From Candidatus Levyibacteriota bacterium (lineage in GTDB: Bacteria; Patescibacteriota; Microgenomatia; Levybacterales; UBA12049), in contig CAVRKE010000001.1 in assembly GCA_963722305.1 (NCBI GenBank), positions 437,549-501,548 on the forward strand: DNA of 64,000 nt, in the 5' to 3' direction. Positions 929 to 52,873 of the stretch are shown piece by piece (position 1 is the stretch's first letter; every line of letters begins with the position of its first letter). The position numbers and the translations under genes are program-made. The notes beneath the pieces were generated by a model. The model was not told where the DNA came from. It made no database searches and saw only the letters and a program-made list of their open reading frames with translations.

Positions 929-2431
929 TCATTTATCACCTCCTAGTGACACAGTTACGCTGACTTCTTTTCCGAATACTTTTGTTGCCGCTTCCTCCAA
1001 GAGCTTCAGATTTTTTGCTTCTTCCAATTTTTCTTTGTGGAAGTTTGACTTGGCAATAATCTTCAATTTGTTTTTTTGAATTTCATCCGCCGAGCAGCTC
1101 CGTAGCACTCCGGCAACAAGATGATTTTGAAGTTTCACTTCATTGATCAATTTTGTAAAAAAATTATTTGTTAAAACTTGATGTGAAGCGCGGGGAGATA
1201 CAAAATTTTCGTTGCTTTCATTATCTAAAATATGAGGGGTGACGCCGGAGGAAGAGCTCCCGGCAGCGCGGACTTCGTTCGCAGCGCCAGCAAGACTAGA
1301 AGGAGCACTGACGGGAAGGAAACCGGCGGCAGGACCCCGTCCTTGACCTTCTTTCTCTCCCCACTCCAGAATTGCCAACTCCAAAGGCATCTGTGGTAAA
1401 ACCGCGGTTTTTGTTTCCTGGTAAGCCACTGTTAAGATTTCAAACAACTGTTGTATCTCCAAAAGACTGAATTGAAAACTTCCCTCTTTTTTCTCCACCC
1501 CAACCTCTTGCAAAAGCAACAGATGTAACCTTTCCACCAGCTGCTCGATAAAGAATTTAAAATCCATTCCCTGCTTGACTAATTCTTTGCAAATCGTGAG
1601 CCCTTTTTTGACGTCTTTTTGCACCAAAGCGTCAAGCATTGCCGCCAAATTTTCCGAAATGCCCAAAGTATTAAACTTTTCATTCACCAAATCTGCCGTA
1701 ACGGTCTTTCTGCCGGCAAAAACCGCTACTTCTTCCAAGATTTTTGTCGCATCCCTAAAACTACCGTCGGCAATTTTGGCAATCTCCAAAAGCGCCTCTT
1801 TGTCGGCTTTTATTCCTTCCGCTTTCGTAATCCTTTGCATTGACCGAACTAATTCTTCGGCAGTGGCCCGGGTGAAATTTATCCTAAAGCAGCGAGAAGC
1901 AATCGTGGCCGGAACTTTATGTGGTTCGGTGGTACAAAGAATAAACAGCGCATGGCTGGGCGGCTCTTCCAAAGTTTTTAGAAGCGCATTGAACGCTTCG
2001 GTTGTCAACATGTGCACTTCATCAATAATGTAAACTTTTTTGCTGGCTTTGAACGGCGCCAGCTTAATTTTTTCTCGTAAATCCCTGATTTCATCAATGC
2101 CTCTGTTTGACGCTCCGTCAATTTCTAAAACATCCAAATTGTTTCCGTTGGCAATCGATAAACACTGTTCGCATTTATTGCACGGCTCAATCTCTTTTTC
2201 TGTCCGTTGCCCTTTTAAAGCTTTGTGTTTTTCGCAGTTTATAACCTTGGCGATAATTCTGGCGGTTGAGGTTTTTCCCAAACCTTTCGGTCCCGTGAAT
2301 AAAAAGGCATGGGCAAAACCGCCCTTGGAAAAAATTGAATAAAGATTACTCCTTACTTCCTCATTGTCCAGTTCTTCTATTTTTTGGGGCCTATACTTTC
2401 TGTAAAAAACCATAATGTCACTTCGCTCCAA
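929..2431 (-). CDS. dnaX: DNA polymerase III subunit gamma/tau; contains an in-frame MITE-like insertion
   Basis: Walker A in the context FTGPKGLGKTSTARIIAKVIN, the Cys zinc module CNKCEQC, and an AAA+ clamp-loader core. The linker region carries a 51-codon insertion ending ...NESNENFVSPRA, encoded by repeat copy 1188..1340. Confidence 0.9.
   Translation of the reverse strand: MERSDIMVFYRKYRPQKIEELDNEEVRSNLYSIFSKGGFAHAFLFTGPKGLGKTSTARIIAKVINCEKHKALKGQRTEKEIEPCNKCEQCLSIANGNNLDVLEIDGASNRGIDEIRDLREKIKLAPFKASKKVYIIDEVHMLTTEAFNALLKTLEEPPSHALFILCTTEPHKVPATIASRCFRINFTRATAEELVRSMQRITKAEGIKADKEALLEIAKIADGSFRDATKILEEVAVFAGRKTVTADLVNEKFNTLGISENLAAMLDALVQKDVKKGLTICKELVKQGMDFKFFIEQLVERLHLLLLQEVGVEKKEGSFQFSLLEIQQLFEILTVAYQETKTAVLPQMPLELAILEWGEKEGQGRGPAAGFLPVSAPSSLAGAANEVRAAGSSSSGVTPHILDNESNENFVSPRASHQVLTNNFFTKLINEVKLQNHLVAGVLRSCSADEIQKNKLKIIAKSNFHKEKLEEAKNLKLLEEAATKVFGKEVSVTVSLGGDK
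1188..1340. repeat. MITE-like dispersed repeat, copy A; in-frame inside dnaX
   Basis: Begins GCGCGGGGAGATACAAAATTTTCG. About 150 bp are near-identical to copy B (9643..9780), including ...GGGGTGACGCCGGAGGAAGAGCTCCCGGCAGCGCG...CAGGACCCCG. Confidence 0.7.
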
Positions 2432-2530
2432 TTTTCAATTCACAATTTTTAATTTTCAATACTCTAATTTTTAATAATTTAGATTTAGGATTTGATTAGA
2501 AATTAAGAATTAGAAATCAGAAATTTTTTA
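2430..2530. repeat. AT-rich short-period intergenic repeat tract of the TTAGAAAT/TTAGGAAT type
   Basis: caattttcaattcacaatttttaattttcaat...gatttaggatttgattagaaattaagaattagaaatcagaaatt; period about 7-8 bp. The same motif family recurs in many spacers. Confidence 0.5.
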
Positions 2531-2917
2531 TTATTCATGATGCAATCCCAGTAAGTGCATCAAACCGTGCTCGACCAGCTGGTCTACTTTATCGTCGACC
2601 AACATTTCGTCCCTTACCGCATCATTAATGACTTGCGGATAAGAAAGGACAATGTCACCAAGTCTTAAAAAATTATTCGGCATTTTGAGCGTCTCCCCTT
2701 CGGTTTGCGAAAACGATAAAATGTTTCTGGTTTTATCTTCGCCCTTATATTTTTTAGAGAGTTCGCGCATTTTCCGGTCTCCGACAATGGCCACCGAAAC
2801 TTCAACTGCTCCGCCTATCTCATTTTTATCAAGCACGTTTTTGATAACTTGTTTGATGCGTTTCCGGCTGACTTTATACCTGCTTTCCACAAAAATTAAA
2901 ACCGAAATTCTATCCAT
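2531..2917 (-). CDS. ybeY: rRNA maturation RNase YbeY
   Basis: 128 aa ending with the His triad EHGLMHLLGLHHE (H3xH5xH zinc site), with a matching size. Confidence 0.8.
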   Translation of the reverse strand: MDRISVLIFVESRYKVSRKRIKQVIKNVLDKNEIGGAVEVSVAIVGDRKMRELSKKYKGEDKTRNILSFSQTEGETLKMPNNFLRLGDIVLSYPQVINDAVRDEMLVDDKVDQLVEHGLMHLLGLHHE

Positions 2918-2929
2918 ATGTTATTTTCT

Positions 2930-3115: not shown

Positions 3116-3120
3116 AAAAT

Positions 3121-3531: not shown

Positions 3532-3556
3532 AATTTTGAATTATAAATTTTGAATT

Positions 3557-8083: not shown

Positions 8084-8902
8084 CTAGGAGATAGCTTTGA
8101 CAAATTTTTTAATCAGTTTTGCGTTTCCGGCAATTACCTGCTTTGAAGTAAAATCAACTTTTTCTCCGTTATGATTAGCAATCATTCCTCCGGCTTCCTC
8201 AACAATTAGAAATCCGGCGGCGTTATCCCACGGTTTTAGATTGCGATTTAGATATAAATCCGCTCTCCCTGCCGCAACGTCGCACAGCGCCAATACAGCA
8301 CTCCCCATTAACATAAGCCAGGGAGTTTGCGGCAACTTCAGTATTGTTTCCAAATTAAGTCTCGTTCCTTTTGGATCGTAGTTATTGTCTGTATAAATAG
8401 TTGCTTTTGCAATCTCCGTCTGATTACTGACGTGAATTTTCTTGTCATCAACAAACGCTCCTTTTCCTTTTTCGGCATGAAAAAATTCATTTCTGAAGGG
8501 ATTTAAAATCATGCCCACCTGTAATTCGCCTCTCTCAACATAAGCAAGCGAAATTCCGGAAAAATTTCTTTCATATCTAAAATTGACAGTTCCGTCAATC
8601 GGATCCATTACCCATAAGCGGTCAACCGATAGCAGGTCTTTAGTGCCCGACTTTGTCTCTTCCGACAAAATTGCGTGTCCCGGAAAATTTTCTTGAATTG
8701 TTTTTTTAAGTATTTTTTCGACTTCTAAATCTGTGGCGGTAACAAAATTTAATCTTCCCTCATGTTTAGCAACGATTCCTTTTGTCGGATCGGCATTTCT
8801 GACAACTTTTCCGGCTGCAAATATTGCGTCTTTTATCGGTTGCAAATTCATGTGTTTATTATAACACTCTCTACCCTTTAACCTCGTGGCCGCCGAAGAC
8901 AT
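8084..8902 (-). CDS. suhB: Inositol monophosphatase-family protein (SuhB/IMPase)
   Basis: Metal-binding motifs WVMDPIDGTVNF and ...GSAVLALCDVAAGRADLY. Confidence 0.8.
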   Translation of the reverse strand: MSSAATRLKGRECYNKHMNLQPIKDAIFAAGKVVRNADPTKGIVAKHEGRLNFVTATDLEVEKILKKTIQENFPGHAILSEETKSGTKDLLSVDRLWVMDPIDGTVNFRYERNFSGISLAYVERGELQVGMILNPFRNEFFHAEKGKGAFVDDKKIHVSNQTEIAKATIYTDNNYDPKGTRLNLETILKLPQTPWLMLMGSAVLALCDVAAGRADLYLNRNLKPWDNAAGFLIVEEAGGMIANHNGEKVDFTSKQVIAGNAKLIKKFVKAIS

Positions 8903-9908
8903 TTCTTAAAGCGTTAAGCATTCTGGCGGTAAATGAATTTTGGATTTTCTGGTCTGTTTGCGATTTTGTTCTGTAATTAAGAGAACTTTCGATAACTTGA
9001 GTCTGAACACCTTCTTTTTTTGCTTCTTTCACCGTCCAGCGCGCTTCACCCGACTCGCTGATCGGACCCTCCATATTTTTCAATTTTGGGCTTTGCGTTA
9101 AAGCGTCCGCTACCCGATCGAGCATAAATCCGGAAACCAAACTCCCCTTTTGCCAAAGCGCTGCAACTTTTTGCAGATTAAACTTATACTGCGATTTTTC
9201 CAAGACTGCGAATCCTTCGCCCAAAGACTGCATTATTCCGTACTCAATGCCGTTATGCACCATTTTGACAAAATGCCCTGCTCCGCCTTCACCGAAAAAT
9301 GCATGTCCGCCGTTTGGTTTGGCTAGTGAATCTAGAATTGGTGTGATGTATTGATAGGCTTTTTTTGAACCGCCAACCATTAAGGAATAACCGTTTTCAA
9401 AGGCAACCACTCCTCCACTGACGCCAATACCCAAGAATTCAATTCCCAAATCACGAAGGTACTGATATCGTTTTTCCGAGTCAGAGAAATGCGCATTTCC
9501 GCCGTCAACGACAATGTCGCCTTTTTGTAAGTATTTTCGAACTTCGTCTAGAACACTCTGCGTTGGCTCGCCCGCCGGAAGCATTAACCACAAGACCCGC
9601 GGTTTGGGAAACACTGAGATTAATTCCTGAATAGTTTTGAAAGCGCGGGGAGATACAAAATTTTCGCTGCTAGTTGCATTTTCTTTAAGGGGTGGCGCGG
9701 GTGGAAGGGCTCCCGACAGCGCGTAGTCAGTGAGTCGTGAACGAGCACTGGCGGGAGGGAAACCCGAGACAGGACCCCGCAGTGATTTAATGAAGTCCTG
9801 ACTAACTTTGAAAGTCCGGTTCCAGACAACAATTTCGTGCCCTTCTTCGTACAGTTTTTGGGCGATGCGTGAACCCATTTTCCCAAGACCTAATATTCCA
9901 ATCTTCAT
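8871..9908 (-). CDS. gnd: 6-phosphogluconate dehydrogenase (decarboxylating, short form) with an in-frame MITE-like insertion
   Basis: Rossmann N-terminus MKIGILGLGKMGSRIAQKL, KPRVLWLMLPAGE, IVVDGGNAHF, and a 6PGDH C-terminal domain. A ~45-aa insertion ...PPAPPLKENATSSENFVSPRA is encoded by repeat copy 9643..9780. Confidence 0.8.
   Translation of the reverse strand: MKIGILGLGKMGSRIAQKLYEEGHEIVVWNRTFKVSQDFIKSLRGPVSGFPPASARSRLTDYALSGALPPAPPLKENATSSENFVSPRAFKTIQELISVFPKPRVLWLMLPAGEPTQSVLDEVRKYLQKGDIVVDGGNAHFSDSEKRYQYLRDLGIEFLGIGVSGGVVAFENGYSLMVGGSKKAYQYITPILDSLAKPNGGHAFFGEGGAGHFVKMVHNGIEYGIMQSLGEGFAVLEKSQYKFNLQKVAALWQKGSLVSGFMLDRVADALTQSPKLKNMEGPISESGEARWTVKEAKKEGVQTQVIESSLNYRTKSQTDQKIQNSFTARMLNALRNVFGGHEVKG
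9643..9780. repeat. MITE-like dispersed repeat, copy B; in-frame inside gnd
   Basis: GCGCGGGGAGATACAAAATTTTCGCTGCT...GGGGTGGCGCGGGTGGAAGGGCTCCCGACAGCGCG...CAGGACCCCG; near-identical to copy A. Confidence 0.7.
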
Positions 9909-10225: not shown

Positions 10226-10319
10226 AAATTAATTACTAATTATTCTAATTGATCTAATTACTCTAATCAAACCCCAAATCCCAATTATTTAGAAATTAGG
10301 AATTAGGAATTAGAAATTT
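10226..10319. repeat. AT-rich short-period repeat tract (CTAATTNNNC and TTAGGAAT flavours)
   Basis: ttaattactaattattctaattgatctaattactctaatcaaaccccaaatcccaattatttagaaattaggaattaggaattagaaatt. Confidence 0.5.
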
Positions 10320-15719: not shown

Positions 15720-15837
15720 TGAAGAGGATAAGATTTTCGCAATTCGCACCTTTATACCTTAATAAAAAACGGAATCGCAATAACATAAATTACGAATAAG
15801 AAAATTTTATCATCGAGCAAGTTAGCGACCTCAGCGC
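15720..15837. repeat. MITE-like dispersed repeat, copy G (degenerate)
   Basis: ...GATTTTCGCAATTCGCACCTTTATACCTTAATAAAAAACGGAATCGCAATAACATAAATTACGAATAAGAAAATTTTATCATCGA...GACCTCAGCGC aligns with copy E (46427..46535) and has the same right terminus. Confidence 0.5.
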
Positions 15838-16904: not shown

Positions 16905-17030
16905 TAAATTCCTAATTGCTCTAATTGACCTAATTATTCTAATCAAATCCCAAATCGTTAATCTTTAATCATTTGGCCATTGGTCATTGATTAGAAATTA
17001 AGAATTAGAAATTAGGAATTATCCTTCCTT
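16905..17030. repeat. AT-rich short-period repeat tract at the left edge of the surface-protein island
   Basis: cctaattgctctaattgacctaattattctaatcaaatcccaaatcgttaatctttaatcatttggccattggtcattgattagaaattaagaattagaaattaggaatt. Confidence 0.5.
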
Positions 17031-17084: not shown

Positions 17085-18392
17085 TTGATGAGAAAAACTC
17101 TTCTTAAATTTTTATTGTCTGCCCTCTTTTTACTGGTCGCCTTCTCATTCTTTTCGCAAAAAACAATTGGCAACGGTAGTGGTAGCTCCGCTAGTGATAA
17201 CACTTGTACCGGGACTAATAATGTTTGCAAACAATACTCTGCTACCGGTTACACCGATTGCACTCTAGATGATAATAATGGCACCTCTAGTCAAGGCGCT
17301 TCTTGCGGTGCTTCCGACGAACAAAATGGCATTCGCTGTTACACCTGCACCGGCTGCGGTAAAGCGCCTGTCACCTGTGGCAACGGACAAACAAATGTTA
17401 ACGGAAAATGTGTGCCAAACTGCCCGACAAGTGGCACAAGCCCCACTGCCTATTGTAGTTATGGCACTCCGACTGACCCCCAAGCAAAAGCCTTAACTCA
17501 ATACACCTGCGATTATCAAGCCGGTGGCAGCAGCAGCATGATATGTTATGGCTGCAATACTGGATATAACCTGGTCAATAACGTCTGCACTAAACCGCCT
17601 GTAAATAATCCCACCCCCACTCCTACTTCTAAGCCCACTCCTACATCTACCCCCACTCCCACTTCTATGCCAACCCCTACTGCTAACCCTACTCCCACCC
17701 CAACCCTTACCCCTACTCCAACCGTCACTCCCACGCCGACTCTTACTCCTACCCCGACTCTTACTCCCACTCCCACCATCCCTCCTACACATACAATTTT
17801 AAATCTGACTGTCGGGCTGGACGGAATTGGCCATGTCGGCGACCGGGCCAACCCGGACTGGACTGCAAAATATAATGCCGCCGGCTCCAACCAAAATCCA
17901 CTCACCAATCCGCGGACTTTTACGATTAACGTTAGTGGTACCAACTACACCACCTCACTAAGTTTTGACCAAACCAACGGCGTTTATACGGGCACCGCTG
18001 ATTTAGGTACGGCTTTTACCACCGGCGATTATATTGTTAAGATTTCCACCGACGGGCATTTGGTAAAAGCAGTCACGGGCTCTGTCAGCGGCGGGCTAAT
18101 GCATATTGTCTCCGGAGTTTCTACTAATACCGCTCCCCAAGTCAACTTGGTTACCGGAGATATTACGGGAGACAACAGTACAACCCCCGACAATAAACTT
18201 GATGTTTTAGATTATAATATTCTTATCAGTTGTATTAAGGACCCTGATATCAATGATTTTGATAATCAGGCAACTTGCGACGAAAATGCAAATTATATTA
18301 AACGATCTGATTTGGAAGACAACGGCGTAGTTGATAAATACGATTATAATTTATTTATCCGGGAATATTCGGAAGTACAAAATGGGGATTGA
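17085..18392 (+). CDS. Secreted Cys-rich protein with a Pro-Thr linker and a C-terminal dockerin-like Ca-binding repeat pair
   Basis: Signal peptide; ~150-aa Cys-rich N-domain; a (PTPT)n linker of ~60 aa; C-terminal [27 protein letters not shown] and [21 protein letters not shown] segments resembling two dockerin repeats. Confidence 0.5.
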
Positions 18393-29299: not shown

Positions 29300-29361
29300 C
29301 TAAATCATTATAGCATTAGTCATTAATTAAAAATTAAGAATTAGAAATTGAAAATTGAAAA
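29300..29361. repeat. AT-rich short-period repeat tract (TTAGAAAT/TGAAAAT)
   Basis: cattaattaaaaattaagaattagaaattgaaaattgaaaattatttt. Confidence 0.45.
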
Positions 29362-32278: not shown

Positions 32279-32316
32279 GCGCGGGGAGTCCTGTCTTCGC
32301 AGGACGACCTCAGCGC
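32279..32316. repeat. Minimal MITE-like element, copy C (termini only)
   Basis: GCGCGGGGAG-tcctgtcttcgcagga-CGACCTCAGCGC: both family termini flank an internal 16-bp palindrome. Confidence 0.55.
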
Positions 32317-32317: not shown

Positions 32318-32851
32318 TTACACCTGTTTTTCTCTTTTGGTGGCTGAGACTCTCCCACCTTGCCATTGTCCCCGGTATTGAGAGCCCACCCCTTTTATTT
32401 CGTGGAAAATAATGTGGGCAAACCTGGCTCCCATTTCAATTTCCACCGTAATCGGCCCTTCGTTTTTGAGGCCAAATGTCAGCTCACCTTGATAGCCGGG
32501 CTGCACCGGGCCGGTTCTTAGGAAAAGTCCTGAACGGAAAGTGGTGGTCCGCGGTAAAATAATTGCCGATAGATTAACCGGCAGATTTATTTTTTCGATG
32601 GTTTTGACTAAGAAAAAATCGCCGGGTTTGATCTTGATAATTTTGTCTTTAGGATATTTTTTGAGCAAAGTGATATCGGCAGTCTGGCGGTGGGTTTCGC
32701 CAAGGAATGCCTTGCCGGAAATTTTATACACCTCACCCAGGCGCAGATCAAAGCCGGCCCCTTCCGGATTAGTCAGTTCCCTTTCCGACAATCCTTCAAC
32801 CATTTTTTTGGTTTTAACCAGTTTTAATAAATATTTTGGACTTAAAATCAT
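32318..32851 (-). CDS. dCTP deaminase/dUTPase-superfamily protein (second dcd-like paralog)
   Basis: GAGFDLRLGEVYK...IKPGDFFLVKTIEKINLPVNLSAIILPRTTTFRSGLFLRTGPVQPGYQGELTFGLKN is the dUTPase/dCTP-deaminase fold. The gene is flanked on both sides by MITE copies. Confidence 0.7.
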   Translation of the reverse strand: MILSPKYLLKLVKTKKMVEGLSERELTNPEGAGFDLRLGEVYKISGKAFLGETHRQTADITLLKKYPKDKIIKIKPGDFFLVKTIEKINLPVNLSAIILPRTTTFRSGLFLRTGPVQPGYQGELTFGLKNEGPITVEIEMGARFAHIIFHEIKGVGSQYRGQWQGGRVSATKREKQV

Positions 32852-32863: not shown

Positions 32864-32974
32864 GCGCGGGGAGATACAAAATTTTCGCAGTTTTCACTCG
32901 AACTCCCGAACGTCAGGCTTATCTATTAGGACCTTGAGCTGAAAACGAGAAAATTTTCGTATCGACCTCAGCGC
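32864..32974. repeat. MITE-like dispersed repeat, copy D (complete, intergenic)
   Basis: GCGCGGGGAGATACAAAATTTTCG...GAAAATTTTCGTATCGACCTCAGCGC shows the imperfect terminal inverted repeats. Confidence 0.7.
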
Positions 32975-33633
32975 ACTTTACTAAAAATTTCTTTCTGCAC
33001 TTTTTCTATCGTTTTTTCCGCGTCAATAACCGTGAACTCTTGGGGAAATTCCCCCAAAAGCCAGTCGTAGCCTTTTTTAACCATGGTCATCTTTTCCGTA
33101 TTTTCGTAAAGCTCTTTTTCTTTAGTCGAGTCATGACGACGCGAAAGCCCGGTTGCAACCGAAACCTGAAGGTAAAAAGTGACATCCGGAACAATAAACT
33201 GGTTATACATTGACAAAACGCTTTGCGCCACTGCCTGAACCATCGCTTCGTTTTGATAATCAACGCTGTCTTTATCCGCAATTCCGTAAGCCACTGATGA
33301 CCAAAAGTAGCGGTCGGATATAACCGTCTCGCCTTTTTCCAGATGATTGAGAATTTCCAGCTGCTGGATTTGCCTGTCCGCCGAAAATAAGTATTGAAAG
33401 GAAACCATTGGCACTTCCACTTTCCCCTGCAGCGCGTTTCTGATAAATTTACCGATTTCGCTGTCGGTCGGGTTTTTGGTTAAGAAAACTTTTCTACCCT
33501 GTTTGGTGAGGTTTTGAGCCAGAAGCTGTGACTGGACTGTTTTGCCGCTACCGTCAATCCCCTCCAAGACAATTAGCTTTCCGGGATAAGGGTTGCGCTT
33601 AAAATCAAGGTCAAAGCTGACGTGGTAGTTCAT
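32968..33633 (-). CDS. tmk: Thymidylate kinase
   Basis: P-loop LIVLEGIDGSGKTVQSQLL and the DRY-like SDRYFWSS motif. The annotated 3' end overlaps repeat copy D by a few bp. Confidence 0.85.
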   Translation of the reverse strand: MNYHVSFDLDFKRNPYPGKLIVLEGIDGSGKTVQSQLLAQNLTKQGRKVFLTKNPTDSEIGKFIRNALQGKVEVPMVSFQYLFSADRQIQQLEILNHLEKGETVISDRYFWSSVAYGIADKDSVDYQNEAMVQAVAQSVLSMYNQFIVPDVTFYLQVSVATGLSRRHDSTKEKELYENTEKMTMVKKGYDWLLGEFPQEFTVIDAEKTIEKVQKEIFSKVR

Positions 33634-33744
33634 AATTTAATTTTTAATTGTAAATTGTCAATTTTTAATTAAGGTTAATATACCACACGCTTGTGTCTTT
33701 GGAAATTGGCAATATTTGTGCTAAAATAGCAAGATTGTAAAACT

Positions 33745-34761: not shown

Positions 34762-35328
34762 CTATTTTTCCTCGTCGATTTTGGATTCGCCGGGTCCTTT
34801 CTGGTTTAAATATTTGGCAGATTTTTTCTTGTAATACGGCACTTCTGCCGGAGAAGAAAGTTGTTCAAAAGATATCGAACAGATTCTCATATTAGGATAA
34901 AGTGCTACGGGTAATTTTCCCATATTTGCCAGCTCTAACGTGATATGGCCTTTAAAGCCGCATTCAATGTTGGCGGCTGTAGAATGGATGACAATCCCCA
35001 GTCTTCCGATACTTGAACGGCCCTCAAGCCTTCCGGTTAAGTCGTCCGGCACTTCAATTCTCTCAACCGTTGTTCCCAGCACAAAATCTCCGGGTTGCAT
35101 AATAAACGGTTTCCCCTCCTCAACCGTTATTTCTTTGGTAAATTCGGCGGCCGAATTTTTGCGCGGGTCAATTACTCCGTGCACGCCCGCTTCGAAAACT
35201 CTGAACGTATTCCCTAAACGCAAGTCGATGGAACACGAACCCAACTGGACAGCCAAATCGGGAAAAGGCTGAATAATTATTTTTTTTGAGGCCAAGGCTG
35301 TTTTTAAATCCCTATCTGAAAGCAGCAT
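34762..35328 (-). CDS. dcd: dCTP deaminase
   Basis: SIDLRLGNTFRVF...GRLEGRSSIGRLGIVIH...ISFEQLSSPAEVPY matches canonical Dcd. Confidence 0.85.
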   Translation of the reverse strand: MLLSDRDLKTALASKKIIIQPFPDLAVQLGSCSIDLRLGNTFRVFEAGVHGVIDPRKNSAAEFTKEITVEEGKPFIMQPGDFVLGTTVERIEVPDDLTGRLEGRSSIGRLGIVIHSTAANIECGFKGHITLELANMGKLPVALYPNMRICSISFEQLSSPAEVPYYKKKSAKYLNQKGPGESKIDEEK

Positions 35329-38392: not shown

Positions 38393-39280
38393 ATTGGATA
38401 ATTTCTAGAGCCTATTATAGCAGGAATTGGTTTTGAAGACGACTTTGCCACCAAAAATACGTTCGGCTACGCTCAGTATTTTTGTGGTGAGCGGAGTCGA
38501 ATCCACCAAAAAACCACCCTTCGGCTTCGCTCAGGACCTCGCTTGCGCTCGACCCCGTGTGCCTTGAGATGGTTTAAAAATGAAAAGTAACTAGAGGGTG
38601 CTGAATAGCGCCCTCCAACCAAAAAGTGGTAGGAAACCCCTCCTCCGCTAAAGCTTCGGAAGGGCAAGTGAATAAGTGAGATTTACAAGAGTTATTCTCT
38701 CTTGGTGTTACGAGTTAATTGGTATTGAAAACTAAAAGTGTGAACCTTTAATCTTTTGCCAACTTCGCCGTTCATCCCCTATTCCTACTCTGTAAATTGG
38801 GACGCGCCCAATTTAATTTTAGAAAGGAGGTGATCCATCCCCACCTTCGGGTAGGGATACCTTGTTACGACTTAAGCCTTATCGCCGATTTTTATCTCTA
38901 TCGCAAAAAGCAATATTCGATAACTACCGACTTTACTGCCTTGACGGGCGGTGTGTACAAGACCCGAGAACGTATTCACCGCAGCATGCTGATCTGCGAT
39001 TACTACCGATTCCGACTTCATGAGGTCAGGTTGCAGACCTCAATCTGAACTGAGGCGAAATTTAAGGGATTGGCTTGCCGTTGCCGGCTTGCAACCCGTT
39101 GTTTTTCGCCATTGTAGTGTGTGTGTAGCCCAGGGTATAAGGGCCGTGCTGACTTGACGTCTTCCGCTCCTTCCTTCCCAATAAAATTGGGACCGTCTCC
39201 AATGAATATTCAACATTGGACGCGGGTTGCGCTCGTTTCCCCACTTAAGGGAACACCTCACGGCACGAGCTGACGACCAT

Positions 39281-40061
39281 ATTCTTCCATGTATTTCTAC
39301 AGGTATGGACTATACCTTCTTCCTTTCTTTAAGGAAGCCAACCGTCTGAATATCTAATTAGACATTCTCACCTTACCTTAATAAGGATCAGTCTCTACGG
39401 GGCAAGTTTTACAGAATAAAGCTTTACTCTTGGTAAAACCTCATCTCTAAAATGCTTTTTCAGATAAAGAACATAAGTTCTTGCAACGGTATATTGGTAC
39501 AAACTCATATTGGCTTTGCCAAACATTAATTGATCTCTTAAAGCATCTTCTTTGCTTGAATAAGCAATTCTAATGCCTGATCTATGCTTGGTATCTATAT
39601 GTCCATCTCCATCAATTCTACCTGCTAAATAAGCAAGTTGATATTTTAAGGGAATGGACAATTCTCCAGTTTTTGTAGACATAAATAAACGTGTCAAAAT
39701 CCTATTATTAATATAAATTTGAACGGCTGTTTGTTTACGCTTACTTTTTCCATCTGGCTGATAAATCCTTTTCTTTATTGGATAGTCTAATTTTACTCTT
39801 AAAAGAAATTTGTTGAATTTATCAATCAGTTTTAGATTAACTGAAGTAAGTCCAATTGAACTTGATCGCCAATAACCATCTGCTAACCAAAGACCTAAAA
39901 TGTAAAAGTCTTCGGCTGATTTAAAAGCAAACTTGCTTCCCACGGTATTACCCATTAATAATATAATACTACATTATTAGCTAGGGCTTCACCGTTTTGG
40001 GTTGGTTATTTCTCCCAGATATTACTACCTGAGCGGCCATCTTCCCGATTAATTCGGGACT
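39281..40061 (-). other. Intervening sequence (intron-like insertion) in 16S rRNA at about E. coli position 1055-1060; encodes a LAGLIDADG endonuclease
   Basis: Exon sequence ...ACAGGTGCTGCATGG (+ strand 40064..40078) resumes as GTCGTCAGCTCGTG... at + strand ~39276. The intervening ~780 bp contain ORF 39395..39955. Confidence 0.6.
39395..39955 (-). CDS. LAGLIDADG homing endonuclease encoded inside the 16S rRNA insertion
   Basis: Two LAGLIDADG motifs: FYILGLWLADGYW and LAYLAGRIDGDGHI. Same strand as the rRNA. Confidence 0.8.
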   Translation of the reverse strand: MGNTVGSKFAFKSAEDFYILGLWLADGYWRSSSIGLTSVNLKLIDKFNKFLLRVKLDYPIKKRIYQPDGKSKRKQTAVQIYINNRILTRLFMSTKTGELSIPLKYQLAYLAGRIDGDGHIDTKHRSGIRIAYSSKEDALRDQLMFGKANMSLYQYTVARTYVLYLKKHFRDEVLPRVKLYSVKLAP

Positions 40062-40187
40062 AGCCATGCAGCACCTGTGCAATCATCCTTACGGATTTGC
40101 TAATCTTTCAAAAAGCATAAACGATTGCATGTCAAACCCTGGTGAGGTTCTTCGTTTTGTCTCGAATTGAACCACACGCTCCACCGG

Positions 40188-40247
<60 letters not shown>

Positions 40248-41024
40248 CCTGCTTAACGTGTTAACTTGCGCCTCATCCTCCGAGGGAGGAGAAAGCTAGC
40301 AGGCATTGTTTACGGCTAGGACTACACAGGTATCTAATCTGTTTCGCTACCCTAGCTTTCGTGCCTCAGCGTCAGGAATATTCCAGATGCTTGCCTTCGC
40401 CTTTGGTGTTCCAGTTAATATCAACGCATTTCACTGCTACACTAACTGTTCCAGCATCCCTAACAATCCTCAATCCCGATAGTTTCTTTCCCAGTTCCGA
40501 AGGTAAGCTTCGGTATTTAAGAAAAGACATATCGGGACGCCTACGCACACTTTACGCCCAATGAATCCGGATAACGCTTGCCTCCTACGTATTACCGAGA
40601 CTTCTGGCACGTAGTTAGTAGAGGCTTATTCTATAGTCCGTGAAGGGACTATCAAAAGGAGTTTACAACCCTAAGGCTGTCTTCCTCCACGCGGCGTCGC
40701 TGGGTCAGGCTTTCGCCCATTGCCCAATATTCCTAGTTGCTGCCATCCGTAGATGTACTGCCCGTGTCTCAGTGCAGTTGTGGCTGATCGACCTCTCAGT
40801 CCAGCTACCCGTCATCGCCTTGGTGGGCTTTTACCCCGCCAACAAGCTGATAGGACGCAGGCTCATCTCTTGGCGCAAAGTTAATTGCTTTACAATAAAT
40901 TGATTATGGACTATTACCCACTCTTTCGAGAGGCTATGGTCCACCTAGAGGTAGATTCCTACGCGTTACTCACCCGTCTGCCAGTTACTTGTCTTGCGAC
41001 AAATCCCTTTGACTTGCATGCTTA

Positions 41025-41067
<43 letters not shown>

Positions 41068-41312
41068 AAAAAAAATTGATGTTAGATTTTCTTTTAGGAA
41101 TTAATCTAACAAAAAATTCCTACCACTTTTTGGTTGAGAAACTTGTTTCGAAACCAACCCTCCAGCAATCGCTCCGTGAGCCGCAGTAGAAATCTACTAA
41201 GGCGAACGGTAAGATGCGGACGGGTTGATTAAAACAGCTTCTAATTACAAAAAGCTCCTTCTCATTCTGTGCTGTATGTGATAACGAATTTTTAAAGTGC
41301 GATTGGCTATTA

Positions 41313-44700: not shown

Positions 44701-44760
44701 TTCTTAAATTTCAAAAATAAAACATTGAAGCATTTATTAAAAATTAAAAATTAGAAATTT
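44701..44760. repeat. AT-rich short-period repeat tract
   Basis: aaatttcaaaaataaaacattgaagcatttattaaaaattaaaaattagaaatttgagc. Confidence 0.4.
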
Positions 44761-44787
44761 GAGCTTGGAACATGTATAATACCAGTT

Positions 44788-46371
44788 ATGCCGCCAGATT
44801 TAACCAATAATTCTCTTTCTCCTATGGCCGATGCCCTGGTCAAGGCTTTTGAAATCAGGCCGACTGTCAATTCCGAGAAGAAAATTACCGTCAATATCCT
44901 CGTCTCCAAAGTCGCCGCCTGGTACGAAAAATTCAGAACCGCCATGGATTACGGCAACGAGGAAACCATACTAAGGCGCGCCATCGAAAGAATTTTAAAA
45001 AGAATGCTCTTTTTGGACGAGGAACCCAAATCCTTGGCCCAAGACTTGGTGCGGGAATTGGTTTGGGCCGGATACTTTGAAGATGCCACTGTGCCGGAAT
45101 CAATTGTTTCAGAGGTTGCCTCATCAATTAAGCTCTATTTAAAGCTGAAAGAAACTATTCTTAGCAAAAAGACTGTCCCCAACGAAAACGTTACCGAATG
45201 CATAATTCAGCTTCTCTCCTGTGAAATCCACTATATCTTAAAACCGAACAAAGAAAAGGAAGCAATGTCCAATTTTATGTTCCGCATTTTCCGAAACAGC
45301 GTTGATATCACCGATGATTCAAAGCAAACCCGCGATGTCCAGGTTTTTATTGCCGTCAGGAAAAATTTCGCCCGGGACGATATTGCCTTTTTAAGGTATC
45401 AGCTGTTTTCGCAAATTTTCGGAAAACTGACCGAGCAAAACTTTAATCACGTGATCGCAAACTTTGCCAGCGCCTACAAAGAAGTCAAATATCAGCTCAA
45501 TTACCCCCGGAAAGACCGTATTTTTAACCATGTCAAGAAAAAAACTCCGGCCTTTTTGGTGCTTTACGATATCTTAATGCAAAACAGAGGGCAAATCAGG
45601 GCCTTAGTCAAAAACAATGAGGAATTTAAGGATAACGTCTTTGCCGACTGTGAAAAAAGATATCGAAGTATCAGAAGCAAAATCACCACCGCCATTATCC
45701 GCAGCTTCGTCTTTATTCTGGTAACCAAAGCGGTTATTGCCCTGGCGTTTGAAGGCACTTTTGAAAACCTGTTTTACGGAAAAATCCAATGGGGCTCGAT
45801 GGGCTTAAACATTATTGTTCCTCCCTTGTTGATGGTTTTTGCGGGAGTTTTAATTAGAACTCCAAATTCCAAAAATTCGGAAAAGATATTTGCCGACATG
45901 CAACGAATTTTGTTTGAGGAAAACCCCCAGCTTATCCCAACGCTATCTTTAAAGCTTAAACCCGATAAAACCGGCAGCGCCAAGGATTTTATCTTTTCGG
46001 TGCTGTGGATTTTAATTACCGTTTTGCTTTTTGGTCTGGTTGTCACTATTCTTAACAAACTCCAATTTAATCCTTTAAGCCAAGTAGTTTTCCTTTTCTT
46101 TATTGCCATTATTTCTTTTTTGACCTACCGCATTTACCAAACAGCCAATATCTATACGGTTATTTCCAGGCAAGGAGTGGTTGGCACAATCGTTGATTTT
46201 TTCTTTGTCCCGGTAATTAGGGTCGGCCGAAAACTGACCGAAGGAATTGCCCAGATTAATTTTATTTTGATTATTGTCGATTTTATAATTGAAGCTCCCT
46301 TCAAGGGTCTGGTCGGATTTTTTGAACAATGGTTCCTGTTTGTGGCTAATAAAAGAGAAGAACTGGAGTAA
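44788..46371 (+). CDS. Hypothetical polytopic membrane protein (527 aa)
   Basis: Soluble N-terminal half, then several hydrophobic helices (VFILVTKAVIALAF, IIVPPLLMVFAGVLI, FIFSVLWILITVLLFGLVVTIL, VVFLFFIAIISFLTY). No motif recognised. Confidence 0.4.
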   Translation: MPPDLTNNSLSPMADALVKAFEIRPTVNSEKKITVNILVSKVAAWYEKFRTAMDYGNEETILRRAIERILKRMLFLDEEPKSLAQDLVRELVWAGYFEDATVPESIVSEVASSIKLYLKLKETILSKKTVPNENVTECIIQLLSCEIHYILKPNKEKEAMSNFMFRIFRNSVDITDDSKQTRDVQVFIAVRKNFARDDIAFLRYQLFSQIFGKLTEQNFNHVIANFASAYKEVKYQLNYPRKDRIFNHVKKKTPAFLVLYDILMQNRGQIRALVKNNEEFKDNVFADCEKRYRSIRSKITTAIIRSFVFILVTKAVIALAFEGTFENLFYGKIQWGSMGLNIIVPPLLMVFAGVLIRTPNSKNSEKIFADMQRILFEENPQLIPTLSLKLKPDKTGSAKDFIFSVLWILITVLLFGLVVTILNKLQFNPLSQVVFLFFIAIISFLTYRIYQTANIYTVISRQGVVGTIVDFFFVPVIRVGRKLTEGIAQINFILIIVDFIIEAPFKGLVGFFEQWFLFVANKREELE

Positions 46372-46426
46372 ATTTCTAATTTCTAATTCTTAATTTCTAA
46401 TCAAATCCAAATATTTAAATTTAAAA
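46372..46426. repeat. AT-rich short-period repeat tract (opposite orientation, ATTTCTAAT)
   Basis: atttctaatttctaattcttaatttctaatcaaatccaaatatttaaatttaaaa. Confidence 0.45.
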
Positions 46427-46535
46427 GCGCGGGAAGATACAAAATTTTCGAATTCGCGTTTTATACTTTAGTAAAAAACGGGCTAGCGATAATATAAATT
46501 GCGGATGAGAAAATTTTCGTATCGATCTTAAGCGC
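46427..46535. repeat. MITE-like dispersed repeat, copy E (intergenic)
   Basis: GCGCGGGAAGATACAAAATTTTCG...GAAAATTTTCGTATCGATCTTAAGCGC. Confidence 0.65.
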
Positions 46536-47035: not shown

Positions 47036-47044
47036 AATAGACTA

Positions 47045-49404: not shown

Positions 49405-51531
49405 TTATTCCTCCGAAGCGGTAGGTTGTGCGGAAGCTCCTGCTGTTTTTTCTTTTAATTTATCCTGACTTTTTCCCTCGACTGCGCTCGGGATTTCGCT
49501 TCGCTCAACTTTTGGATTCTTAATATCTTCTAACTTCCAGGCGGCGAAGGTACATTTTGGGTAATTAGAACAACCATAAAATCGGCGGCCTTTTTTAGTC
49601 TTTTTGAGTATAATTTTTGCACCATCTTTGGGGCAGATTAAGTTAGTTTCTACCACAAAAGGCTTGGTAAATTTGCAGGCCGGAAAGTTTTCGCAAGCCA
49701 GGAATTTCCCAAATCGACCGATTCTAATTATCAAATGTCCTTGGTCTTGCGGACAAATTTCGTCAGTCTTCTCCACCTCAATCTTAACCCGAGCCGCATC
49801 TTTAACGTTTTCCAAAGTTTGGGCAAACGGCGTATAAAATTCTTTAATTACCGGCACCCATTTTTTTTCGCCGCTAGCAATTTGGTCCAAACCGTCTTCC
49901 ATTGCGGCAGTAAACGGAATATCATCAACGGTTGAAAAATTGGCTACCAGAAAATCATTAACCGCAATTCCTACCGTTGTCGGTTGGAACCTTCCTTCAA
50001 CTCTTTCGATATATTGCCTGCCCTCAATCGTTGAAATAATCGTGGCGTAAGTTGAGGGCCGGCCAATTCCCTCTTCCTCCAAAGCGGCGATTAAAGACGC
50101 ATCGTTATACCTTGGCGGCGGTAGAGTTTCATGCTCTTTTTCTTCGATTTTTGAGGCTGATAAAACATCTGCAACTGCAAATTCAGGCAAGATGTTATCA
50201 TTTAAAGCCTGAACATTTACTTTGAGGAATCCGTCGAAAATCAGCACCGAACCGTTGGCTTTTAGTCTGTAAACTTTATTTTCGCTGTCAACCATTACCG
50301 TTGTCGACTCCACCACGGCATCGCTCATTTGCGACGCTACCGCCCTTCTCCAAATTAGCTCGTAAATTTTAGCGTAATCCCTGCCAATTTGAGTAGCCAC
50401 TTCTTCGGTTAAAACCTGCACTTTTGTTGGCCTAATTGCTTCGTGTGCTTCCTGCGCTAATTTTTGTTTGGCCTTGTAAAATCTTGAGCTTTCGGGAATA
50501 TATTTGCCGCCGTAAGTTTTGGCAACATAATTTCTAATTGACGTAACCGCCGATTGAGCCATCGAAACCGAATCGGTTCTATGGTAAGTAATGTAACCTT
50601 CTTCGTACAGTTTTTGCGCCAAACTCATGGTGCGCTTGCCGGAAAAACCGAATCTTCGCGAAGCATCTTGTTGTAAGGTTGAGGTCGTAAACGGCGCCAA
50701 AGGTGCTCGTTTGCTTTCTTTCTTGAGGACATCGGCCACAATCAGTTTTTGAGTAGACAGATCCGCAACAATCTGCTTGGCTTTTTCTAAATTGTCAATT
50801 GTGGTTTTGCTAAAAGTATATTCGCCGTCATAAAGTTTGAGCTTTTCGGAAATTTCAATTTTACTCTGATTGATTTCGATTAGCTCAAACTCCGTTCCTT
50901 CAGATTTGAGATTTGGGATTTGGGATTTGGGATTTACCATCAGCGTACTGATAGTGTAGTATTTTTCCTTTTTAAACTTTTCGATTTCCCTTTCCCTTTC
51001 GACAATCAATCTTAAAGCCACCGACTGGACTCGGCCGGCAGACAGCCCACGTCTGACTTTTTGCCACAAAATTGGCGACAGTTTGTAACCAACCAATCTA
51101 TCCAAAACTCTGCGGGCGGTTTGGGCGTCAACCAAATTTACATCCACTTCCCGCGGGGTTTTTAGTGCTTCGTCAATTGCTTCTTTAGTGATTTCGTGGA
51201 AAACAATTCTTTGGAACTTTTTGCTCTTGTCTGCTTTTTGCAAAACGTCCTGAACATGCGCCGCAATCGCTTCTCCTTCTCTGTCAGGGTCGGTGGCCAG
51301 GATGATATTTTCGGCACTCTTTCCGGCGGCTTTTAATTCGGCTAAAACTTTTTTCTTATCCTCCATCATGACATATTCCGGCGTAAAATCATGCTCGACA
51401 TCAATCCCCAGGGTTGACTTTGGCAAATCCATAATATGCCCCATCGAAGCTTTAATTTGGTAATCCTCGCCTAAGAAACGCGAAATAGTTTTGGCTTTTG
51501 TTGGAGATTCGACTATTACCAAGTTTTTCAT
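49405..51531 (-). CDS. topA: DNA topoisomerase I
   Basis: TOPRIM N-terminus MKNLVIVESPTKAKTI, the GYITYHRTDS active-site Tyr region, and C-terminal C4 zinc ribbons (CPKDG...C..C, C...C). Confidence 0.9.
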   Translation of the reverse strand: MKNLVIVESPTKAKTISRFLGEDYQIKASMGHIMDLPKSTLGIDVEHDFTPEYVMMEDKKKVLAELKAAGKSAENIILATDPDREGEAIAAHVQDVLQKADKSKKFQRIVFHEITKEAIDEALKTPREVDVNLVDAQTARRVLDRLVGYKLSPILWQKVRRGLSAGRVQSVALRLIVEREREIEKFKKEKYYTISTLMVNPKSQIPNLKSEGTEFELIEINQSKIEISEKLKLYDGEYTFSKTTIDNLEKAKQIVADLSTQKLIVADVLKKESKRAPLAPFTTSTLQQDASRRFGFSGKRTMSLAQKLYEEGYITYHRTDSVSMAQSAVTSIRNYVAKTYGGKYIPESSRFYKAKQKLAQEAHEAIRPTKVQVLTEEVATQIGRDYAKIYELIWRRAVASQMSDAVVESTTVMVDSENKVYRLKANGSVLIFDGFLKVNVQALNDNILPEFAVADVLSASKIEEKEHETLPPPRYNDASLIAALEEEGIGRPSTYATIISTIEGRQYIERVEGRFQPTTVGIAVNDFLVANFSTVDDIPFTAAMEDGLDQIASGEKKWVPVIKEFYTPFAQTLENVKDAARVKIEVEKTDEICPQDQGHLIIRIGRFGKFLACENFPACKFTKPFVVETNLICPKDGAKIILKKTKKGRRFYGCSNYPKCTFAAWKLEDIKNPKVERSEIPSAVEGKSQDKLKEKTAGASAQPTASEE

Positions 51532-51664
51532 AATATGTTCTCTATGAACAAAATTGTAGTCTAAATTATACAGTAGTTGTCAAGAGGCAAACGCCACGCG
51601 ATGCTGGGCGCGGAGCGCGGCACGCATCAAGGGTCAAAAAATTTTGACCCGCAGATCCTGAGCG

Positions 51665-52873
51665 TTAGCGAATGGATTGAAAAAGGCCGTCGGAGTTTTT
51701 GATGATTCCTTTTATTTCCATCATCGAAAGCAAACTGCCAATTTGAGATGGATCGAGATTTGAGCGCCTGACGATTTCGTCAAAACCGAGTCCTTCGTTT
51801 TCCAATAGTTGCATTATTCTGAGTTCATTTTTTGATAGATTCTGAAACTTCGGGTTTGTTTTTTCCATTCTTAATTCATAATTCTTAATTCCTAATTCTT
51901 TTTGAATGTCCTGCGCGGACGTCACCAACTTTGCTCCCTTCTCTATTAATTTAAGTGGTGCGACTGATAATGAAGAAGTCACCGGCCCCGGCACCGCAAA
52001 CACCGGACGGTGAATTTTGAACGCCTCATCGGCCGTAATTAATGCTCCGCTGTCAATTGCTCCTTCGGTTACCAAAACTCCGTCCGAGATGCCGGCCACA
52101 ATCCTATTTCGGGCCGGAAACGAACCCATTGAAGGCGGCTCTCCCGGCTTATATTCCGAAACCACTGCCCCACCGCAATCCAAAATTTCTTCGTAAAGTT
52201 TTTGGTTTTCTCGGGGGTATGCCATATCTACACCGTTTCCTAAAACAGCAATCGTTTTCCCGTGTGCGTTGATGGCTGACTGATGTGCCACACCATCTAC
52301 GCCATAAGCCATTCCCGAAACAATCGTTAAACCGGCTCTGGCTAAATCTCCTGCGAACATTTCGGTAATTTCTCTACCGTAGTTGGTAATACGCCTTGTC
52401 CCGACGATTGCAATGAAAAGAGAATTTTTATTGGCGCGGGAAGATACAAAATTTTCGCTGCTTTCATTCGAACCTTCAGACTTCAGGTTTAACTTTTTAG
52501 AACCTTGAGCTGAAAGCGAGAAAATTTTCGTATCGACCTCAGCGCCACGAAAAATATTAATGTTCCCTTTTGCGTATAAGCCAATTGGCGGATTGGGAAT
52601 TTGTTTAAGAAGCGGCGGGTATTCTGCGTCGAGAAGGCAGATGAATTTGATTTTTTGTTTTTGAAGCCTTAACTGATATTCTGCAAAATTAAACTGTTCT
52701 CGAAACTGGGTAAATTTTGCTGTAAGAGCCGGTTTTAGAATATCGATTAGTTTTGACTCGTCTGCCTTCCAGGCATTTCCCAATGAACCGAAATTCTTAA
52801 GCAACAAATCCAGTTTTTTCGGCCCAATCCCCGGCGCTTGAGAAAATCCTAAATAATATTCTTGTTCGCTCAT
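51665..52873 (-). CDS. dprA: DNA-processing protein DprA (Smf) with an in-frame MITE-like insertion
   Basis: The true N-terminus is MSEQEYYLGFSQAPGIGPKK; the ORF track starts 29 codons earlier. Rossmann-like core GTRRITNYGREITEMFAGDLARAGLTIVSGMAYGVDGVAHQ. The insertion ...SEGSNESSENFVSSRANKNS is encoded by repeat copy 52434..52545. Confidence 0.85.
   Translation of the reverse strand: MSEQEYYLGFSQAPGIGPKKLDLLLKNFGSLGNAWKADESKLIDILKPALTAKFTQFREQFNFAEYQLRLQKQKIKFICLLDAEYPPLLKQIPNPPIGLYAKGNINIFRGAEVDTKIFSLSAQGSKKLNLKSEGSNESSENFVSSRANKNSLFIAIVGTRRITNYGREITEMFAGDLARAGLTIVSGMAYGVDGVAHQSAINAHGKTIAVLGNGVDMAYPRENQKLYEEILDCGGAVVSEYKPGEPPSMGSFPARNRIVAGISDGVLVTEGAIDSGALITADEAFKIHRPVFAVPGPVTSSLSVAPLKLIEKGAKLVTSAQDIQKELGIKNYELRMEKTNPKFQNLSKNELRIMQLLENEGLGFDEIVRRSNLDPSQIGSLLSMMEIKGIIKNSDGLFQSIR
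52434..52545. repeat. MITE-like dispersed repeat, copy F; in-frame inside dprA
   Basis: GCGCGGGAAGATACAAAATTTTCG...GAAAATTTTCGTATCGACCTCAGCGC, with both termini intact. Confidence 0.7.

Follow-up and report, generated by a model that had tools for sequence, protein, structure and literature searches.

Hairpin-forming palindromic elements in spacers and, in frame, in genes of a Levybacteria-like lineage: a probable counterpart of the Rickettsia palindromic elements

Rickettsia palindromic elements (RPEs) are, as far as the account of Ogata et al. (2000) given in PMC10969869 goes, hairpins of ~100-150 bp that fall into several families and occupy both the spacers and, in frame, the housekeeping genes of a small, reduced genome; in that account the genic copies use one preferred frame, encode a conserved peptide and sit at sites tolerated by the protein fold, and no transposase is known for them. 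In-frame palindromic repeats have been regarded as unusually frequent in Rickettsia (PMC10969869). Here we describe short palindromic elements in a 64,000-nt stretch of DNA (the window) from a Candidatus Levyibacteriota bacterium (contig CAVRKE010000001.1, positions 437,549 to 501,548), where copies lie in intergenic spacers and inside the genes dnaX, gnd and dprA. We conclude with high confidence that the copies represent non-autonomous palindromic mobile elements, which form hairpins, belong to a Levybacteria-like lineage of the candidate phyla radiation (CPR) and are functionally equivalent to RPEs. A sequence-only reading of the window had named RPEs as the closest precedent, and the match proved to hold feature for feature. 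Full-text searches turned up no relevant report of such repeats in CPR bacteria; the one paper retrieved, on diversity-generating retroelements, mentions the subject only incidentally.

Other described repeats also bear on the comparison. REPINs are ~100-nt hairpins formed by two inverted arms, which are GC-rich imperfect palindromes, and they are mobilised in trans by RAYT, a Y1 HUH enzyme (PMC3116915, PMC3337134); they are nearly all extragenic, 14 of 1,067 16-mers overlapping genes in SBW25 (PMC3116915). Insertion sequences (IS) of the IS200/IS605 group and their miniature derivatives (PATEs) transpose, according to Ton-Hoang et al. (2010) as cited in PMC3116915, as single strands and with an orientation coupled to replication. 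Miniature transposable elements with inverted repeats (MITEs) that can fuse with open reading frames (ORFs) are known from bacteria as well, among them Correia/CREE, ERIC and Coxiella QMITE1 (PMC5896051, PMC10969869).

The sequence-only reading had listed seven copies of one family, starting at 1188, 9643, 15720, 32279, 32864, 46427 and 52434; all seven are present and all lie in + orientation (Table 1). The left-end core GAGATACAAAATTTTCG occurs five times in the window at no more than one mismatch, compared with a mean of 0.58 in shuffled sequences, and none of 100 shuffles reached five. The left end that had been described exists, with the correction that its variable base is the eighth, GCGCGGG(G/A)AGATAC, and not the seventh as in GCGCGG(G/A)GAGATAC, and the imperfect terminal inverted repeat of ~24 nt (GCGCGGGGAGATACAAAATTTTCG / CGAAAATTTTCGTATCGACCTCAGCGC) was recovered. 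Similarity does not end with this shared 24-mer, as the copies align at full length, those in dnaX and gnd sharing the left ~45 nt of the family. The copies do belong to one family, which we call family A, yet they are more heterogeneous than had been supposed: three are full, one is decayed, one is a mini-element and two are chimeras with a second family, B. The three full elements (32864, 46427 and 52434; 109-112 nt) carry two different cores among them.

Further copies were collected through a scan of GTDB, a scan of metagenomes and the dnaX locus of one relative, using a profile of the window copies, which gave ~40 full-length copies, 37 of them distinct, from the window and from 37 metagenome, two GTDB and one JGI loci (L-numbers below). 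The 20-mer matches in L003 and L032 lie in unrelated genomes and were discarded as chance. Family-A elements are ~110 nt long and have conserved, asymmetric ends, 5'-GCGCGGGGAG-ATAC-AAAATTTTCG ... GAAAATTTTCG-TAT-CGACCTCAGCGC-3', around a core that is variable and always self-complementary. The rpsB-tsf spacer holds an A copy both in the window (15720-15837) and in L020 (1259-1369), where tsf is 79% identical, and the two copies belong to different core subfamilies, a further instance of different variants at one site. Mini-elements of 38-39 nt (window 32279; L012 1300-1338; L005 7125-7161, inside dnaX) have an unrelated short hairpin in their middle; because they keep only the outer ~10-12 nt of each side, they point to the outer stem as the part relevant to propagation. 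A full family-A element is also found at L002 3878-3990 (CAZDTO010000017.1), on a contig binned as 'uncultured Gammaproteobacteria' which is probably a mis-binned CPR contig.

RNA-fold prediction, a check that the sequence-only reading had proposed, shows full copies folding from end to end as imperfect hairpins of -34 to -39 kcal/mol, with z-scores of -4.3 to -5.0. Pairing statistics were obtained from an alignment of 35 distinct copies from the window and public metagenomes, with 31 pairs and 500 shuffles. Standard pairs occupy 98.0% of cells in this alignment versus 94.8% in the shuffles (0/500), changes on both sides are seen at nine pairs (1/500 shuffles) and in 31 cells (0/500), and pairing drops to 36-53% when the partner is slid by 1-3 columns. 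The outermost two bases covary too, appearing as GC..GC, TT..AA, GT..AC, AC..GT and AT..AT. Certain asymmetries are nearly universal: a bulged A, a G.T pair and a tandem G-A mark the stretch where GGGGAG faces GACCTC, and each arm has an A4T4 block. The non-Watson-Crick oppositions on the element-sense strand of the 35-copy alignment comprise 129 G.T and 5 A.C, a count that stems partly from a few ancestral positions and from the structure having been predicted on that strand; the hairpin is therefore better on the element-sense strand, an observation that we regard as suggestive.

A whole-length hairpin with covariation, wobble pairs (G.U) concentrated on one strand and the position of many intergenic copies 5-20 nt from gene ends could be taken as signs of a duplicated structured RNA family, either of small RNAs or of hairpins that act in cis on an mRNA, for instance by stabilising or terminating it, with the protein inserts as a side effect. 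This explanation seems very unlikely to us. Intergenic copies show no orientation preference with respect to the neighbouring genes on their 5' side (12 opposite, 11 same), which argues against a cis-acting role in mRNA, and genic copies are transcribed from the weaker-folding strand. No promoter or terminator consensus was called at the elements, and the Rfam comparison gave no match to them, the best hit (E 0.18) being far below the gathering score.

Orientation does follow the replication strand, with GC skew serving as a proxy for the direction of replication. The skew of the element-sense strand is negative in 25 of 26 copies that have at least 3 kb of flanking sequence, and all seven window copies are on the C-rich (negative-skew) strand, the window (G+C ~42%) having a negative GC skew over all 64 kb. 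When flanks were split by gene orientation to remove the coding-strand skew, the skew was still negative in 20/25 cases for co-oriented genes (mean -0.041) and in 31/33 for opposite genes (mean -0.127), which implies a replication-associated component of about -0.08. As the G-rich strand carries most genes, the bias also helps to explain why genic copies are nearly always antisense. The orientation bias fits selective loss of strong hairpins from the lagging-strand template, a filter on survival, at least as well as targeting of the IS608 type.

Many copies are found within genes. A scan for spanning ORFs detected 21 full-length matches in open frames of 450 nt or more, and a stricter ORF-based count gave 15 coding copies among 39 distinct ones, 13 of them in a preferred orientation with the frame AEVDTKIF...ENFVSPRA. 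The host genes in the window and in the relatives' loci, peat metagenomes included, are gnd, dnaX, dprA, topA, argS and a GT4 glycosyltransferase gene, as identified by Pfam and NCBIfam. Coding copies in the preferred orientation are antisense to the element and almost always read (G/S)AEVDTKIFSLSAQGSKKLNLKSEGSNESSENFVSPRA. The copies in dnaX, gnd and dprA have, as the sequence-only reading had put it, the same orientation and the same frame at the shared left arm (GAA AAT TTT GTA TCT YCC CGC GC, that is ENFVS(P/S)RA on the - strand). The tails, for which SSENFVS(P/S)RA had been given, are NESNENFVSPRA in dnaX, TSSENFVSPRA in gnd and ESSENFVSSRA in dprA, and of the three genes, which had been called essential, gnd and dprA are not necessarily so. 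The delimited stretches in dnaX (153 nt) and gnd (138 nt) are both multiples of three; at 112 nt, the true boundary of the dprA copy is off by 1-2 nt.

Orthologues without the insert exist for several host proteins. In gnd, close orthologues of 297-305 aa lack it, and P0138, P0144, P0146, P0203 and P0238 are insert-free. In other orthologues this loop is occupied by the complete A peptide, by a peptide of RGP type (B), by LKSLSDF...TAPRA, by RQTHVSDD...TRSLNES, or by chimeras that keep the A left arm. The AlphaFold model of the window Gnd has a confident Rossmann fold, with values below 50 for insert residues 47-85 in the predicted local distance difference test (pLDDT), and the insert is accordingly modelled as disordered. 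DprA orthologues are mostly ~360-376 aa long and insert-free (P0243, P0245, P0249, P0251, P0252), the A peptide being carried by the window protein and that of L011, and the loop concerned is variable among orthologues; translation of the window dprA probably starts ~30 codons downstream of the TTG given in the ORF list. The window topA gene is without an insert that its 67%-identical L009 orthologue carries. In the dnaX linker, pieces of the same families are found in different relatives, with a full A copy in L004; the database entry of the window DnaX (P0001, 494 aa) starts at an ATG six codons downstream of the ORF start (M7, window 2413). Two coding copies in the opposite orientation are located in the leader of a prepilin-like gene, just before the N-terminal methylation motif GFTLIE (L036 195-830, L025 667-1302), where leader peptide and start codon may both come from the element (MLELKARKFSHRLQRQSGFTLIE).

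The segments could in principle be ancestral, conserved parts of the proteins such as low-complexity linkers, and the dnaX linker is indeed long in all close relatives (455-513 aa). This is already refuted, however, by the insert-free orthologues of gnd, dprA and topA, by the presence of the same DNA in spacers and in unrelated genes and proteins, and by the absence of a codon-position signature of protein-level selection, all of which uphold the original view of these segments as insertions. The central claim of the sequence-only reading, a dispersed, inverted-repeat, hairpin-forming family lying in frame in dnaX, gnd and dprA, is supported.

Over 12 coding copies, the variable sites are distributed as 11/10/13 among codon positions 1/2/3, and the peptide is therefore without detectable protein-level selection; selection on the peptide was rejected as an explanation given this even distribution. 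Intergenic copies of the same subfamily contain stops and indels in the peptide frame. Judging from these comparisons, the peptide looks like a tolerated passenger that is conserved because the DNA is. A word-index protein search with the 40-aa element peptide returned no host proteins.

The copies in dnaX (1188-1340) and gnd (9643-9780) consist of the left ~45 nt of family A followed by a different GC-rich palindrome of ~95-105 nt. This is family B (GGGGTG...CAGGACCCC), which in frame encodes (L)RGPxxGFxPxSA... and which stands alone in a spacer of L001. Fusions of A and B recur in other genomes (L028/L035, L013), and chimeras are also present in L015. Orthologue alignments revealed at least two further insert families at the same gnd loop and dnaX linker of relatives, one reading LKSLSDFDKFSNASVPAKLGIRS...TAPRA and another RQTHVSDDAR...QTRSLNESR. 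Family B and these additional families have GCG(C)GGGG-like left ends, and the right end is GACYTCAGCG-like in one of them and CAGGACCCCGC in B. In a gnd fragment (L015 441-614) the right terminus of the LKSLSDFDKFSNASVPAKLGIRS...TAPRA insert is a related one (GGCGACTTCAGCGAT), and a GCGCGGGG-type left end is suggested by the ...PRA tail that inserts of this type have. Separately, the CPR DprA orthologues P0246 and P0248 have a different insert at another loop (..VIPAQAGIQEYGSRI.. / ..FPVIPDSIRQLSPQWGNSEIDSRFLGNDK..; alignment columns 133-186), which has the look of a repeat from one more family that has come to be translated.

That several families re-use one gnd codon, as do chimeras always keeping the A left arm, has two possible explanations: a preference of the insertion machinery for a site or structure, or recombination between dispersed copies via their shared ends. 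A separate scheme would do without a dedicated transposase, template switching or gene conversion between palindromes propagating and homogenising the copies and shared sites reflecting in-situ replacement of one ancestral insert. Such a scheme would suit the at least four insert types, besides chimeras, at the same gnd codon position, the junctions at the same serine codon in the window chimera and in full A copies, and the flanks, which often extend the palindrome by 1-4 nt that are complementary to each other, as quasi-palindrome correction would produce. It leaves unexplained, however, the first arrival at many unrelated loci (six host genes and many spacers); the conserved asymmetries (bulged A, GGGGAG against GACCTC, tandem G-A) have not been erased, and the A+B chimera occurs in several unrelated genes and genomes and behaves as a mobile unit. 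We give this scheme little credence.

Flanks of the elements are AT-rich, and no fixed tetra- or pentanucleotide is common to the copies. A direct target duplication was found at none of the ~37 distinct full-length copies, a 1-2-nt duplication within the terminal GC being possible. Pairs of left and right ends 0.7-3.6 kb apart enclose ordinary genes, namely a LysM-M23 peptidase gene in L018 and, in the window, the dcd-like gene 32318-32851, which, as had been pointed out, is flanked by the mini copy (32279) and the 32864 copy. A parent autonomous IS with the same ends was found neither in the window nor in the 42 loci, and no plasmid or other database similarity to the elements was detected. 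The window yielded no TnpA or TnpB gene, and no RAYT (Y1 HUH) gene was found among the ~60 window ORFs scanned, which did not include five ORFs within 58061-63642. Two transposases encoded in the window, IS30-like and rve-type, were considered as the parent and rejected, as their ends are unrelated to the element ends.

The term miniature inverted-repeat element, used by the sequence-only reading, does not apply in the strict sense of a MITE because target duplication and parent IS are lacking, although terminal inverted repeats are there. A conventional MITE would be an internally deleted derivative of an IS with a DDE transposase, moved by cut-and-paste via double-stranded terminal inverted repeats. 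The ~24-nt terminal inverted repeats are in keeping with this, as are the two DDE-type transposase genes in the window, near dprA; moreover, IS30-family elements favour hot spots of palindromic sequence as well as their own ends, a habit in line with re-used sites and chimeras. We nevertheless hold it to be unlikely. Besides the uniform lack of direct target duplications, the 25-nt inverted repeats of the IS30-like element have no relation to the ends of the palindromic elements, whose terminal bases are not fixed but covary, no left-end/right-end pair surrounds a transposase in any locus, and neither the strong excess of G.T over A.C on one strand nor the replication-strand bias in orientation favours such an origin.

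We prefer the reading of these repeats as palindromic mobile elements equivalent to RPEs, for which the following course can be proposed. Copies land in short AT-rich spacers and in genes, and genic copies survive only in a surface loop or linker and in the single orientation and frame that stay open. Surviving genic copies would be transcribed and translated as a disordered passenger peptide of 37-50 residues (...ENFVSPRA) that the host protein tolerates. The elements may move at the replication fork in the form of single-stranded hairpins, with an enzyme that is structure-specific and encoded elsewhere mobilising them in trans, and sites like the gnd loop may be re-used or converted between families through the shared ends. 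A single-stranded substrate at the fork fits better than a DDE MITE because of the absent direct duplications, the covarying termini, the bulge and mismatch features, the REP-sized minis and the strand-locked orientation. By analogy with IS200/IS605 and REPIN-RAYT, an HUH/Y1-type enzyme is our leading guess, put forward tentatively. It is also conceivable, if rather doubtful, that the elements represent a new single-strand, fork-coupled CPR mobile system, whose enzyme would recognise the asymmetric outer stem (GCGCGGGGAG / CGACCTCAGCGC; bulged A, G.T, tandem G-A) and move any hairpin between. If true, this would account for families and chimeras with shared termini, minis, the absent target duplication, the strand-locked orientation and the re-use of protein loops, and the elements would keep providing the core proteins of ultra-small genomes with new disordered loops.

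Several points weigh against the preferred reading and its proposed mechanism. No mobilising enzyme was found, both transposase genes of the window have unrelated ends, and the elements show no fixed target motif. No identical copies were seen, so that recent mobility is not demonstrated, and no filled and empty sites are close enough for the exact boundaries to be read, those in topA (L009) and in the ybeY-dnaX spacer (three genomes) being too diverged; coding copies, when delimited at 112 nt, have a length that three does not divide. Translation of the inserts is deduced from intact reading frames and was not observed. One sampling project contributed many of the metagenome loci, and near-duplicates occur among them, which makes the orientation counts less than fully independent. 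If the usual rule for skew is applied, moreover, the better-folding strand lies on the leading-strand template and not on the exposed lagging-strand template.

The nearest relatives of DnaX and Gnd (55-78% identity) are found in metagenome-assembled CPR bacteria, the few named matches being Candidatus Levybacteria, Shapirobacteria and 'Patescibacteria group'. In GTDB a single genome, assembled from a metagenome and assigned to Candidatus Levyibacteriota, has a convincing element copy, and the exact left end is present in 3 of 185,579 GTDB species genomes, none of them Rickettsia. The 16S rRNA gene (38823-41073, - strand) is 2,251 nt long, ~700 nt beyond the model, and contains an ORF (39395-39955, - strand) with LAGLIDADG homing-endonuclease domains; the extra length is presumably an intron or intervening sequence. 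A long 16S rRNA gene with a LAGLIDADG intron or intervening sequence is typical of CPR rRNA genes.

Other features of the window were recorded in passing. It has two genes of the dCTP-deaminase/dUTPase fold 2 kb apart, 32318-32851 and 34762-35328, the first scoring just under the dCTP-deaminase threshold and the second being a clear dCTP deaminase (DCD). AT-rich repeats with 6-nt phasing (ATTAGAAATTAAGAATTAGAAATT-like) occur in either orientation in many intergenic spacers (Table 1), and may be phased A-tracts, promoter-region repeats or another repeat family. A 37-nt sequence is found at 49470-49506 and, inverted and 89% complementary, at 59687-59723, one copy forming the 3' tail of topA and the other lying in a spacer; this pair may represent a further small repeat family adding C-terminal residues. 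Finally, the ORF 17085-18392 (435 aa, no Pfam match) contains, at 17594-17793, a tandem array rich in Pro and Thr whose period is 18 nt (CCCACTCCTACT-like).

Table 1. Element copies, host genes and other features, in window coordinates unless an L-number is given.
Feature	Position	Strand	Remarks
Full family-A element, 111 nt	32864..32974	+	intergenic, between dcd-like gene and tmk; hairpin -39.3 kcal/mol, z -4.95
Full family-A element, 112 nt	52434..52545	+	inside dprA; - strand translation (G)AEVDTKIFSLSAQGSKKLNLKSEGSNESSENFVSSRA
Full family-A element, second core subfamily	46427..46535	+	intergenic; z -4.81
Decayed family-A copy	15720..15837	+	rpsB-tsf spacer; degenerate left end; core subfamily as in 46427
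Mini-element, 38 nt	32279..32316	+	between thyA and dcd-like gene; GCGCGGGGAG...CGACCTCAGCGC around a short hairpin; -22.6 kcal/mol, z -3.7
Family-A left arm	1188..1232	+	dnaX linker; - strand encodes ...DNESNENFVSPRA
Family-B palindrome fused to A left arm	1236..1340	+	dnaX; encodes RGPAAGFLPVSAPSSLAGAANEVRAAGSSSSGVTP...
Family-A left arm	9643..9685	+	gnd; encodes ...ENATSSENFVSPRA
Family-B palindrome fused to A left arm	9690..9780	+	gnd; encodes LRGPVSGFPPASARSRLTDYALSGALPPAPP...
Family-B copies	1236-1340, 9690-9780; L001 6247-6337; L017 7313-7403; L013 2765-2863; L028 480-570		
dnaX (DNA polymerase III gamma/tau)	929..2431	-	insert at residues ~364-415, hypervariable linker before the C-terminal domain
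gnd (short-type 6-phosphogluconate dehydrogenase)	8871..9908	-	insert at residues ~43-88, loop after helix 2 of the Rossmann domain
dprA	51665..52960	-	insert in the loop immediately preceding strand 1 of the Rossmann-like domain (...NIFR, insert, NKNSLFIAIVGTR)
tmk	32968..33633	-	last codons and TGA stop (TCA on + at 32968-32970) inside the right end of the 32864 element
IS30-like IS	52919-54017		ORF 52984-54009 (HTH_38 + rve); directly upstream of dprA; 25-nt inverted repeats GGTAGGTTCTAAAACGAAGTGCAAC, 80% complementary
rve/rve_3 transposase ORF	54672-55736		650 nt beyond the IS30-like element; ends unrelated to the palindromic elements
AT-rich phased repeats	2472-2525, 10265-10318, 16967-17020, 27303-27356, 29303-29356, 31885-31923		either orientation
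AT-rich phased repeats (rest)	33639-33677, 44713-44766, 46371-46426, 62723-62759, 63241-63277		46371-46426 adjoins the 46427 element

The elements reach into replication (dnaX), topology (topA), translation (argS), recombination (dprA) and central metabolism (gnd) of Levybacteria-like CPR bacteria, and they can supply stop or start codons, as in tmk here and in the prepilin gene of relatives. Through these inserts CPR protein families, alignments and predicted structures become inflated and distorted. What we see is an RPE-like phenomenon in a new, unrelated phylum, an indication that reduced genomes whose spacers are tiny repeatedly evolve, or put up with, repeats able to survive because they can be translated. 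The asymmetric termini shared across families, together with the replication-strand polarity, may make this more than RPE-like; the strand-locked orientation and the shared asymmetric ends offer a handle for finding the mobilising enzyme, and the same question can be put to RPEs.

Classical MITEs resemble the elements described here in being short, with terminal inverted repeats, in being sometimes intragenic with open frames and in being able to supply stop or start codons. They differ in size and in having direct target duplications (TA in Correia, 2-4 bp in QMITE1), and in-frame insertion is occasional among them but a dominant feature here. Identity with the Coxiella elements was rejected, since the length of QMITE1 is 300-400 bp and that of QMITE2, 150-190 bp with direct repeats, and the host here belongs to the CPR.

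The IS200/IS605 group is like our elements in making no target duplication, in the conserved bulges or mismatches of imperfect hairpins at the ends and in a replication-coupled orientation. It has, however, distinct left and right subterminal hairpins where we find one whole-length palindrome, and it inserts 3' of a fixed tetra- or pentanucleotide, whereas no fixed flanking motif is seen here. REPINs are alike in the ~100-nt hairpin, in the GC-rich imperfect palindromes, in the REP-size minis (38-39 nt), in a predicted single-stranded DNA or RNA hairpin, in the lack of target duplication and in mobilisation in trans, which here is presumed. The arms of family-A elements are not free-standing REP hairpins, and the conserved GTAG-type 5' motif and the flanked single-copy RAYT gene of REPINs were not found; 15 of 39 distinct copies lie inside ORFs. 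We therefore do not regard the elements as REPINs, because they are not extragenic and lack both GTAG and RAYT.

The closest likeness is to RPEs, which agree in size, hairpin structure, the existence of several families, the combination of spacer and in-frame genic copies, the preferred frame with its conserved peptide, the fold-compatible sites, the lack of a known transposase and the reduced genome. No sequence relationship is evident, and the hosts are far apart (CPR/Levybacteria versus Alphaproteobacteria). The orientation of the elements is here tied to the replication-skew strand, which may set them apart from RPEs. In further distinction from RPEs, the families described here share terminal sequences and form chimeras, and the gnd loop and the dnaX linker are held by different families in different lineages.

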